Part shown: positions 13,182 through 60,481 of the stretch, piece after piece
Numbering within the stretch: position 1 is the stretch's first letter
Layout: the number at the start of each line of letters is the position of its first letter
Assembly (NCBI GenBank): GCA_964016885.1
Contig: OZ024745.1
Coordinates: forward strand, 69,688,001 to 69,752,000
Length of the DNA stretch: 64,000 nucleotides
Source of the DNA: Eledone cirrhosa
Taxonomy: Eukaryota
Direction: 5' to 3'
Notes under the pieces: generated by a model
What the model was told of the DNA's origin: nothing
What the model saw: only the letters and a program-made list of their open reading frames with translations
Databases searched by the model: none
Made by a program: the position numbers and the translations under genes

Positions 13182-13510
13182 AGCGAAGTAGTTTCAGATG
13201 TTCAAGTCCTTTAATAGTAATGCTGTGATATAAATTTCAATGGCGACAGTGGCCACATTTTTCCCTGCGCCAGTGCTGCGATATCGTCAGACACGTTATT
13301 ATGTAACAAGCTGTCTGACGATGTCACGGCACTGGCGCACGGAACAGTGTGGCCACTGTCGCCATTGAAATATATATCACAGCATTACTATTAAAAGTCT
13401 TGAACATATGAAACTACTTCGCTTTTCCTTATTCGATATTTACTCCGTCACTCCTATGTGGAATAAGTACGTTGAGTGCTTGAATCGAATTGCATCAATA
13501 TTTACCCTAA
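13182..13510. mobile_element. Fold-back non-coding element (family D): inverted arms 13182-13293 and 13312-13423 plus a 3' extension
   Basis: Arms are reverse complements with ~85-90% identity by eye; flanked by (TA)n; related pieces at 16863-16965. Confidence 0.8.
13310..13383 (+). ncRNA. Type I hammerhead motif with long stem II (second copy 13222-13293, minus strand)
   Basis: GCTGT-CTGACGA-[45-nt imperfect hairpin]-GAA-ATATATAT-C-ACAGC; palindromic stem III, AUC triplet. Confidence 0.65.
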
Positions 13511-13750
13511 TATATATATATATATAAACAATTAAGTTAAAAATGTACATCTACATATGCATACTGAAATACTAGTATGCATATGAATACACACACGTAT
13601 ACATATGTAGATGTACCAAGTCTTTCACTGGTTACTTTACTGTGAGTATCCAGCTATTCTGTATGTAAACACACAGACAAACCGGTTTTTAGAGTCATAC
13701 TGGTTTTTGAGGAAACACCTTTCCTCTATTCTCCAGAAAGCCAGACAAGG

Positions 13751-13795
13751 AATATTGAACTAGTTTCGTTGTTGTTACAACTCATCAGCAATATT
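13751..13795 (-). ncRNA. Minimal type I hammerhead ribozyme
   Basis: Exact reverse complement of 14573-14617. Confidence 0.85.
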
Positions 13796-14572
13796 TACCT
13801 ATCTACCGGCCTTTCTGGAGAATCGTAAAAGCACATATCGTTATATGCTTTTTCTATGAAAATTAGTAGTGGGCAGATTAATTTGCATAGAGTGTGAGTA
13901 CGTACCGGTTCAACGGAGACGATAAAAACAAATAACGAAACGAAATTAAATTTCGTTTCGTTTGTAACTCACTTTTGTATGACTGACGCTTAAACAATTA
14001 AGTTAAAAATGTACATCTACATATGCATACTGAAATACTAGTATGCATATGAATACACACACGTATACATATGTAGATGTACCAAGTCTTTCACTGGTTA
14101 CTTTACTGTGAGTATCCAGCTATTCTGTATGTAAACACACAGACAAACCGGTTTTTAGAGTCATACTGGTTTTTGAGGAAACACCTTTCCTCTATTCTCT
14201 AGAAAGCCAGACAAGGAATATTTGTCTGTGTGTTTACATACAGAATAGCTGGATACTCACAGTAAAGTAACCAGTGAAAGACTTGGTACATCTACATATG
14301 TATACGTGTGTGTATTCATATGCATACTAGTATTTCAGTATGCATATGTAGATGTACATTTTTAACTTAATTGTTTAAGCGTCAGTCATACAAAATTGAG
14401 TTACAAACGAAACGAAATTTAATTTCGTTTCGTTATTTGTTTTTATCGTCTCCGTTGAACCGGTACGTACTCACACTCTATGCAAATTAGTCTGCCCACT
14501 ACTAATTTTCATAGAAAAAGCATATAACGATATGTGCTTTTACGATTCTCCAGAAAGGCCGGTAGATAGGTA

Positions 14573-14617
14573 AATATTGCTGATGAGTTGTAACAACAAC
14601 GAAACTAGTTCAATATT
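14573..14617 (+). ncRNA. Minimal type I hammerhead ribozyme
   Basis: AATATTG-CTGATGA-GTTGT aaca ACAAC-GAA-ACTAGT-T-CAATATT: canonical core, palindromic stem III, GUU triplet (cut after 14610). Stem I is extended by TTCTCCAGAAAG/CTTTCTGGAGAA. Confidence 0.88.
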
Positions 14618-14996
14618 CCTTGTCTGGCTTTCTGGAGAATAGAGGAAAGGTGTTTCCTCAAAAACCAGTATGACTCTAAAAACCGGTTTGTCTGTGTGTT
14701 TACATACAGAATAGCTGGATACTCACAGTAAAGTAACCAGTGAAAGACTTGGTACATCTACATATGTATACGTGTGTGTATTCATATGCATACTAGTATT
14801 TCAGTATGCATATGTAGATGTACATTTTTAACTTAATTGTTTAAGCGTCAGTCATACAAAAGTGAGTTACAAACGAAACGAAATTTGATTTCGTTTCGTT
14901 ATTTGTTTTTATATATATATATATATATATATATATATATATATATATATATATATATATATATATATATATATATATACATATATATATATATAT

Positions 14997-59143: not shown

Positions 59144-59380
59144 AAATATATATATATACACATATACATATATATATATGTATATATATATATATATATA
59201 TATATATATATATATATATATATAAAGAAAAAGAGATGAAATCGAAAATGCAACTGGAGTCTTATTTTTTTTTTAAATATATATATTTATTTGGTTCCTT
59301 TACTGGTTTCGCAGTTCTTCTGCTTTTCAAAAGGTGAGTTGAGATGGAGAGTCTGTGGTTAGACCCTCCATCTCAACTCA

Positions 59381-59418
59381 CCTTTTGAAAAGCAGAAGAA
59401 CTGCGAAACAGGTAAAGG
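59381..59418 (+). ncRNA. Minimal type I hammerhead, U3-A8 variant (second copy 59297-59334, minus strand)
   Basis: CCTT-TTGAAAA-GCAG aagaa CTGC-GAA-ACAGGT-A-AAGG; the other arm has ACCAGT, so the inferred ancestor is the palindrome ACCGGT; GUA triplet. Confidence 0.72.
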
Positions 59419-59539
59419 AACCAAATAATTATATATATATTTTTAAAAAAAATAAGACTGCAGTTGCATTTTCGATTTCATCTGACAGACAAGTTTGCAA
59501 TTTTCTGAAAATTGCAAACTTGACTGTCACCACATATTA

Positions 59540-59578
59540 TGAACCTGAAGATTGCGAAAGCATGAAAGTACTTGTTCA
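59540..59578 (+). ncRNA. Minimal type I hammerhead with U10.1-U11.1
   Basis: TGAAC-CTGAAGA-TTGC gaaa GCAT-GAA-AGTACT-T-GTTCA; GNRA loop II, palindromic stem III. Confidence 0.75.
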
Positions 59579-60481
59579 ATTAACACTTAGAATTTAATAT
59601 TCTATCATACTATTTCATTATAATACCATTATATATTTTAAAGGATTGTAAATAAAACGAGTAAATCAGACAAAGTTGGAATTCCTCTTATTAATATATA
59701 TATATATATATATATATAAATTATTAAAAAAATAATGATTAAACAAAGAAATAGTTCCTTATATTCCTACATATATATATATATATTATTATATATATGT
59801 ATATACACATATACACATATATGTATATATATATATATATATATATATATATATATATATGTATATATATATATATATATATATATATATATATATATAT
59901 ATATATATATATATATATATATATGTGTGTGTGTGTGTGTGTGTGTGTGTGTGTGTGTGTGTGTGTGTGTGTGTTAGTTTAAAAAATACTATTTTCGAAT
60001 AAGTAAACAGAAAAAGATAAGCGTAGGTAAAGAAATTATTACAGCACAAAGTATGAGATTTATGACAACAAGCTACTCAGAAGGCTAAATGCAATTCTGC
60101 TTGATTTGTATGAAATCCGTATTCGCGGTGTTTAAGTAAACTCATAGAGCAAATGTTACAATGATTTATACCAAAACGGTTTAATAGTGTAATGAATTAA
60201 CGCACGTTTCTTCCACATCGTAAGCAGATATATATTTTAAAACCGTCTAATGTAAACATTAACCGTTAGGCTAAATCGATATGACTTTAAGAGGTAAAAA
60301 GTTTCTTATATTCTCTTTTTATTAATTCTGATGTTTCCAATGATCTCTTCATATAATTAATTAAGTAATAATTGGTTATATGTCTGCTTATGATGAGTAG
60401 AAAATGTGCGTTAATTTATTAAAATTTAATATAATTAACGGTTTGGGACTCTTTTATTATATATATATATTTATTTTTTTC

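Follow-up and report, generated by a model that had tools for sequence, protein, structure and literature searches.

Here, we describe two-armed inserts of Penelope-like elements (PLEs), and of small elements with PLE-type hammerhead ribozymes, in a 64,000-nucleotide stretch of the Eledone cirrhosa genome (contig OZ024745.1; the whole stretch is referred to as the window, and coordinates count from its first letter). In these inserts, two inverted arms of the same family are joined head to head with their 3' ends outward; one arm reaches a long 3' end and the other stops at a short one, leaving a tail on one side only. The window is a real and dense example of a layout already described for PLEs, and the architecture itself is not new; here, it also takes in hammerhead elements without coding capacity, tails of greater length and arms free of overlap. 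The geometry of the arms, together with the biochemistry of PLE proteins, makes it probable that each end of the broken DNA primes reverse transcription at one of two sites. We tentatively propose, at a probability of roughly 0.4, a programmed twin priming in which one protein dimer uses one RNA and both break ends, each end has one fixed start site, and the trailing reverse transcriptase (RT) displaces the leading cDNA.

Arms with one long and one short end

Inverted arm pairs were located by self-BLAST of the window with microsatellites masked, and 3' ends were placed by alignment. The window is animal-type, AT-rich (35% GC) and packed with (TA)n runs; a random point lies within 100 nt of such a run in 7.8% of cases and within 200 nt in 13.9%. 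Seven inserts, here called A1 and A2 (family PLE-A), B (PLE-B), the 466-mer, D, E and F, had been listed in a sequence-only reading of this DNA as head-to-head arms, one long and one short, with both 3' ends in (TA)n. Self-comparison and alignments recover inverted arms with outward 3' ends at all seven places, at or near the coordinates first given, and bear out the long and short arms, with F as an atypical case. The (TA)n context is not exact: it fails for the short end of A2, which lies outside any run, and for F, which stops 9 nt away from one, and the short ends of E and H meet only about four TA units. Five more two-armed inserts (G, D', B', H and I) were found, as well as C, G_ref and A3, which have one arm each. 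The arm pairs are 43-1300 nt long and 90-100% identical, with self-BLAST E-values of 1e-12 to 0, far beyond chance.

We regard a tail as verified if a second copy or a tandem unit shows it as element sequence, which is the case for A, B, D, G and the 466-mer. In PLE-A, the long end (..CCTCTATTCTTTT) is carried by the left arm of A1 (25034..29918; long-end arm on the minus strand, 25034-28730; short-end arm on the plus strand, 28731-29918) and by the right arm of A2 (56196..59143; short-end arm on the minus strand, 56196-57814; long-end arm on the plus strand, 57815-59143). The short end (..TTTTACCAA) is carried by the opposite arms, and the two end points are ~36 nt apart, each being seen twice, close to the ~35 nt claimed before. 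The short end of A2 terminates in CATATATG, 9 nt from a tRNA-like sequence (56114-56187, minus strand; ARAGORN: Phe; Rfam tRNA, 47.9 bits) that may be the head of a short interspersed nuclear element (SINE). In B (41491..43546), the long-end arm is on the left (minus strand) and the short-end arm on the right (plus strand); the short end, at AACAATAT, falls 56 nt short of the long end, where ~55 nt had been read. The 466-mer (13527..14909), a retrozyme-like 466-bp unit with ~1.5 units per arm, has its short arm on the left, its long arm on the right and 2 mismatches in 621 columns between them. D (13183..13509) has the same order (short arm on the minus, long arm on the plus strand), with a loop of 18 nt and mismatches at 10 of 111 columns. 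G (29967..30040) is a 74-bp insert between (TA)n runs, in which a 42-nt short-site arm (minus strand), a 7-nt filler and a 29-nt tail-only arm (plus strand) follow each other, the two arms having no sequence in common.

The distance from the short end to the (TA)n at the end of the long arm is 30 nt in A1 (after a 6-nt overlap), 38 nt in A2, 56 nt in B, 66 nt in the 466-mer, 86 nt in D and 93 nt in G. One long and one short end are thus present in all six inserts with verified tails, for which the probability is at most 1/64 under independent site choice at each end and 1/32 if counted by family. Moreover, end points recur between copies: the A long end twice, the A short end twice and again in A3, and the long ends of B, D (within 1 nt) and G twice each.

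The same pairing fits E, H and I, whose tails are putative and based on where a nearby (TA)n run falls; the corresponding distances are 94 nt in E, 47 nt in H, 184 nt in I and, in F, 210 nt. E (16992..18170) has a long arm on the left (94-nt putative tail plus 64 nt) and a short arm of ~1020 nt on the right, with 0 of 64 mismatches between the arms; its limits had been drawn at 17086-18170, which omits the long end, a further 94 nt that reach the (TA)n at 16991, and its short end abuts just (TA)4. H (36527..37529) consists of 211-bp inverted arms with 0 of 211 mismatches and the putative tail on the left; it is a single copy in the window, its tail may be flank, and the whole could be a miniature inverted-repeat transposable element (MITE). 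I (18286..25007) has its long end on the left, with a putative tail of ~170-185 nt, and its short end on the right. F (59225..59693) comprises a hairpin (59234-59483, 18-nt loop), a second palindrome of 47 nt, a hammerhead at 59545 (plus strand) and a long end at (TA)n. F is atypical because its short arm stops upstream of the hammerhead, and thus lacks it, and is separated from (TA)n by 9 unmatched nt. Two further inserts have lost an outer end. B' (14997..16827), the second PLE-B insert, has a long-end arm on the minus strand up to 16603 that carries a hammerhead, GIY-YIG and an RT piece; the inverted RT piece at 16604-16827 is interrupted by a SINE fragment, and the outer end there is lost. 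In D' (16857..16964), a damaged D insert whose left outer end is lost, a 31-nt left arm (minus strand) is joined without overlap to the final 76 nt of the tail (plus strand).

Probable priming from both ends of the break

The arms differ in how far they reach toward the 5' end of the element. The tail-bearing arm extends further 5' in A1 (by 2528 nt) and B (13 nt), and probably in D (18 nt, judged by eye on helix I of the hammerhead). The tail-less arm extends further in A2 (~285 nt), the 466-mer (75 nt) and E (956 nt). G and D' have a long-site arm that is tail only (29 and 76 nt) and has nothing in common with the other arm. Thus, simple copying of the other arm does not account for the tail-bearing arm in A2, the 466-mer, E, G and D'. 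Because a copy made by folding back can neither outreach its template nor gain a tail, these five inserts need either two primings or a later central deletion, and their geometry suggests two primings as the simplest reading. The earlier idea that both DNA ends prime reverse transcription therefore gains support, from this geometry and from in vitro data on a Poseidon element.

The inner ends of the arms appear to be coupled. Their offset does not exceed 11% of what the two arms span together at 6 of 9 junctions (P=1e-4 if the arms were truncated independently, with the threshold set post hoc) and, without H and F, in 5 of 7 (P=3e-4); G, D' and I were left unscored. In B, B' and A2 the inner ends sit at differing places within the open reading frame (ORF), and are therefore not a fixed RNA end. 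Read by eye, the junctions have 0-2 nt of homology, with a short filler in G and a 7-bp local hairpin at 14221/14222 in the 466-mer; the junction of B (42590/42591) has a 13-nt loop and lies within the GIY-YIG region. A shared template accounts for coupled inner ends; fold-back-assisted joining of two cDNAs could do so too. We put the chances that both ends prime on the same RNA, with the leading cDNA displaced, at about even.

TA microhomology inside the RNA had been proposed to guide priming at the short end. Short ends share with the adjoining (TA)n 6 nt in A1, 4 in B, 2 in the 466-mer, 1 each in D, G, H and I, and 0 in E (A2 and F were omitted, as neither ends in a run). The sum of 16 compares with a null mean of 8.8 (P=0.06) and is driven by A and B (individually P=0.023 for A1 and P=0.086 for B). 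With 0-2 nt in six of the eight families, TA microhomology is not the rule and is seen in just two; an overlap of at least 2 nt, as expected for L1-type twin priming, is found in three.

The differences between the PLE-A arms had likewise been taken as a sign of two RNA molecules. Divergence is 6.8% within A1 and 4.7% within A2, compared to 5.8-6.5% between inserts (781 clean columns), and informative sites split 5:3:2, the first number being same-insert pairing, which is non-significant. An earlier four-arm count of 9:4:4, also non-significant, contained microsatellite columns and is superseded by this one. Of 125 near-invariant residues, 16 are changed in the reading frame of A1 (14 of 123 if the two past a C-terminal frameshift are set aside), whereas in 120 homologues the median share is 0.8% and the highest 6.5%. 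When neutral change was simulated at 3, 4 and 5%, an average of 7, 9 and 12 such residues were altered, and the probability that the frame stays free of stops at these levels is 0.095, 0.035 and 0.015, which counts against high decay. A change of ~3% per PLE-A copy fits both tests. Between A1 and A2, 15 replacement and 0 silent differences are found among 84 codons. Thus, the A1 frame has decayed by at least 3%, and the differences between PLE-A arms are explained by age, i.e., by decay after insertion; since this is sufficient, they are no pointer to two RNAs. The arms of younger inserts are almost the same (466-mer, E and H; mismatches given above), and in B, 4 of 523 columns differ between the arms, compared to 30 of 523 against B'.

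We suggest that priming of both ends on one RNA would proceed as follows. At a target that is AT-rich or a (TA)n run, the GIY-YIG domain would cut the two strands, and each 3' end would prime reverse transcription, one at an outer and the other at an inner start site on the RNA; the tail would be the stretch between the two. These sites would be set by the RNA-protein complex rather than by pairing with (TA)n. The RT that started at the outer site would either halt within the tail, as in G and D', or displace the cDNA from the inner site and trail it, in which case both arms would tend toward a similar 5' end point. The two cDNA ends would then be joined via 0-2 nt of homology or a short fold-back, and the arms would be identical at birth and diverge with age. 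If this is moreover a programmed twin priming, a one-sided tail would be obligatory in two-armed inserts, a mirror arm would be produced at every insertion, and the same process would move non-coding hammerhead elements with tails far beyond 30-40 nt.

Several points weigh against priming of both ends on one RNA. It rests on one window. The insert-like sequence K may have equal ends, the sole such candidate; F departs from the start-site rule; and 3 of ~15 PLE-type pieces (C, G_ref and A3) are single-armed. Later deletions across the centre of a palindrome could mimic the geometry of G, D', E and A2, and gene conversion between arms could also yield the similarity of the B arms. A single RNA is not proven, because near-symmetric junctions are also possible by fold-back-assisted joining of cDNAs from two RNAs. 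Finally, the in vitro support comes from a Poseidon element and shows no strand difference in start site, and the coupling of sites is not shown in the available text of that study (PMC11167929).

These points leave room for other readings. That a single priming event is enough, with the cDNA (or an antisense RNA) folding back to self-prime its mirror, the endonuclease trimming one tail and later central deletions producing the lopsided cases, is unlikely. Self-priming is the reading of junction palindromes given in the accessible part of PMC3846280, and a tail made by endonuclease resolution is the guess found in that of PMC8557442; the 13-18-nt loops of B, D and F and the 7-bp hairpin of the 466-mer resemble fold-backs, and the tail-bearing arm extends further 5' in A1, B and probably D, as such copying requires. 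However, an extra deletion or template switch is required in A2, the 466-mer, E, G and D', two of which have arms that are 99.7-100% identical, and the tail boundaries coincide with RT start sites reported in vitro (PMC11167929, in part). Somewhat more doubtful still is priming on two separate RNAs, e.g., one per dimer subunit, in which the short end arises as (TA)n pairs with an internal TA patch. The 6 and 4 nt shared with (TA)n by the A and B short ends would fit this, as would the very unequal arms of A1 and E, the dimer predicted for another PLE (PMC11167929, in part) and nine L1 insertions attributed to two RNAs in the text available of PMC11702581. The low overlap in the other six families argues against it, as does the PLE-A divergence, which is equal within and between inserts and for which decay after insertion suffices, and strict long/short pairing is not expected from independent RNAs alone.

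We consider it very improbable that two independent single-armed insertions, or recombination between them, came to lie side by side, in head-to-head order, at a hot spot of (TA)n. No target DNA lies between the arms in A1, A2, B, B', the 466-mer, D, D' and E, partner arms are always of the same family, the long/short pairing is strict, and the B arms are far nearer to each other than to B'; on the other side, the window is dense in such elements, includes the single arms C, G_ref and A3, and its PLE-A arms are no nearer to each other than to other copies. Least credible is that the palindromes are assembly or chimeric-read artefacts. The arms of the 466-mer, B, E and H are 99-100% identical, as fold-back chimeras give, but in A1, A2, D, F and I the arms are 4-9% apart and have private indels, nor would an artefact give one arm the long end and the other the short end fixed for the family. 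The layout is also published (parts of PMC8557442 and PMC3846280) and is present in an unrelated assembled contig, described below. Within the window, the artefact appears to be countered by internal evidence only, i.e., the diverged arms and the lack of a palindrome in G and D'.

Coding capacity, hammerheads and neighbouring repeats

PLE-A and PLE-B are endonuclease-bearing PLEs with an RT followed by a C-terminal GIY-YIG domain. A1 contains a decayed RT and GIY-YIG frame (26281-28620) of 779 codons with a Pfam match to RVT_1 (E=6e-7) and 1081 protein homologues, the best being 57% identical over 93% and many containing PF01541; the few named homologues come from assemblies labelled bivalve symbionts. 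B matches GIY-YIG (E=1e-4), B' has an RT piece (E=0.004), and both match a profile of the A homologues. A C-x4-C-x2-C linker precedes GIY-YIG in the translations of A and B, and its cysteines C653, C658 and C661 are invariant in the A1 alignment; a CX2-5CxxC linker is described for Neptune and Nematis elements in the accessible sections of PMC8557442. Self-comparison of the four A and B inserts, all 5'-truncated, revealed no direct tandem forming pseudo-long terminal repeats (pLTRs). In the left arm of A1, a ~100-nt unit bounded by similar TTGTCTTAA words is missing (25501-25608, 25300-25340) and a local duplication is present.

A scan of the whole window with a type I hammerhead descriptor returned nine sites, compared to 0.17 per shuffled window (100 shuffles, maximum 2). 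Eight of the nine fall in the B family (three, one in each of its three arms, with those of B at 41761 on the minus and 43332 on the plus strand), the 466-mer (13788, minus; 14580, plus), D (13315, plus), E (18074, plus, in the short arm) and F. All eight are on the strand reading toward the outer end, and helix III is palindromic in most; a type I hammerhead with palindromic helix III is the form described for PLEs in the part of PMC4209133 available. The ninth match, at 23273 (minus strand) near the 5' part of a long interspersed nuclear element (LINE) in I, is probably due to chance. In Rfam, the sole hammerhead match is the 466-mer pair (HH9, E=3.1e-6, below the gathering score); Rfam matches to microRNA families proved to be dinucleotide repeats. 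A (0 of 4 arms), G, H and I gave no type I match with the descriptor used, and the hammerhead is reported not to be universal among PLEs (PMC8557442, in part). The hammerheads of D and E are of one variant, in which GAAA is preceded by an additional unpaired T and the ATATATAT helix III itself resembles the (TA)n target.

The families had been called unrelated. However, A and B encode the RT and GIY-YIG of PLEs, and hammerheads of the PLE type occur in five families (B, D, E, F and the 466-mer); the families are therefore not unrelated. Based on their type I hammerhead cores, the small families resemble retrozyme-type derivatives of PLEs that lack coding capacity. Most likely, PLE protein is borrowed for mobility by D, E, F and the 466-mer, and the interiors of E and H have no PLE protein match. 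G, H and I are grouped with these inserts by layout alone; H has no ORF match.

The stretch 12707-18285 is a chain in which C, G_ref, D, the 466-mer, B', D', E and then I follow each other via shared (TA)n flanks; the runs serve there as repeated landing sites. C (~10820-12706, plus strand) is an older third PLE with remnants of the RT thumb and GIY-YIG, a C-terminal CNLC motif and a 3' end in the (TA)n at 12707. G_ref (12749..13109, minus strand; inner limit approximate) is a single family-G arm that contains both G end sites and has its long end at the (TA)n of 12707-12748. A3 (55797..55859, plus strand) is a 62-nt PLE-A arm that ends at the short site, followed by (CA)n and then (TA)n. No partner arm of C, G_ref or A3 was found in the window. 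Inside I, a LINE (~18640-24660, minus strand, with APE endonuclease and RT frames) and a SINE lie in a central (AAT)n. K (43962-44229) has 63-bp inverted arms with three mismatches; (TA)n flanks the pair on either side, and 80 nt and (CA)n(TA)n separate the arms. It may be an equal-ended head-to-head insert, a tail-to-tail pair around an inner TA run or a MITE, is a single copy in the window and gave no hammerhead match with the descriptor. Two small isolated palindromes of 47-71 nt lie at 38413-38483 and 33768-33831. Family J (51999-52184, 60483-60674) and a 190-bp family are SINE-like, lack the two-armed layout and were set aside.

Comparison with known elements

The layout is already known from two descriptions, and a third study bears on its biochemistry. 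Craig et al. 2021 (PMC8557442) report an inverted 5'-truncated copy by the 5' end, a 30-40 bp tail that is often one-ended and a (TA)n bias, and treat the mechanism as an open question. In Arkhipova et al. 2013 (PMC3846280), one of the inverted pLTRs may have a tail, head-to-head order is the most common, and palindromes at the junction are attributed to self-priming. Frangieh et al. 2024 (PMC11167929) report that PAc, the protein of a Poseidon element of Anolis, cuts and extends both strands of AT-rich DNA in vitro, that two internal RNA start sites bound the tail, that target homology is unneeded and that a dimer is predicted. Our literature search, which left most subscription papers and older PLE reviews outside, found no paper that explains the layout by both DNA ends priming at two sites.

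As far as these sources go, the inserts share with endonuclease-bearing PLEs the inverted 5'-truncated copy, the one-ended tail, the junction palindromes, the (TA)n bias, the lack of a visible target-site duplication and, in A and B, the CX2-5CxxC linker. They differ in tail length (verified tails of ~30-94 nt, unverified ones up to ~180-210 nt, versus the published 30-40), in the non-overlapping arms of G and D', in having no direct tandem pLTR in the 5'-truncated A and B inserts of this window, and in the lack of a type I hammerhead match in A (PMC8557442). The PAc system is alike in that a tail lies between two 3' end points fixed for each family, the target is AT-rich, homology is not needed and a hammerhead is found upstream of the end points; by contrast, it belongs to another clade, and the accessible text does not treat inverted insertions or two-strand coupling of start sites (PMC11167929).

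Non-LTR retrozymes, as presented in the available portions of Cervera and de la Pena 2020 (PMC7229834) and Li et al. 2026 (10.64898/2026.07.22.740005), are short non-coding units with a type I hammerhead and a palindromic helix III, as here, and are presumed to depend on PLE proteins for their movement; the 466-mer, as a tandem unit, is inside their reported range of 51-972 bp. Our inserts are head-to-head and two-armed with a one-sided tail, whereas those portions describe direct tandems and monomers. Li et al. ask for a tandem of two successive units, both of which contain a complete hammerhead; such units were not found in the window, where the 466-mer has ~1.5 units and one hammerhead per arm and D, E and F are non-tandem.

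Beyond the window, searches of viral contigs gave no relative. Among sequencing runs, the stretch 14997-18263 was partly recovered in 8 of 11 listed ones (4 studies; best share 0.50), which we do not count as evidence. Metagenome and genome contigs gave 81 related loci, mostly collapsed, circular-looking and flankless. None of the 81 has a (TA)n-flanked arm pair, two (L032 and L069) have an inverted ORF piece at the contig start, and one (L061) has a complete two-armed insert. The latter (1492-1837) is a palindrome of two hammerhead arms placed head to head around a centre that is nearly symmetric, and one arm has a ~32-nt tail that is confirmed by a third piece (2920-2977); its flanks are not (TA)n.

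The origin of the inverted repeats and one-sided tails of PLEs is named open in the accessible text of PMC8557442. Three countable rules, i.e., one start site per end, coupled inner ends and arms halting inside the tail, separate the models of mechanism and can be scored in long-read assemblies or in the in vitro system. For repeat annotation they carry a caution, as such inserts can pass for MITEs or satellites.

Twin priming of L1 was reportedly first modelled by Ostertag and Kazazian in 2001. As portrayed in the accessible part of PMC11702581, the second L1 primer pairs with the RNA through microhomology, its site varies, and the arms overlap by at most 10 bp; here, the site is family-fixed and mostly free of homology, arms other than those of G and D' overlap by 43-1300 nt, and there is no poly(A). 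Nevertheless, the two systems would have in common that both ends of a staggered break prime reverse transcription on one RNA, with a 5' inversion and end-joining as the outcome, and the non-overlapping geometry of G and D' is that of L1 twin priming (PMC11702581).

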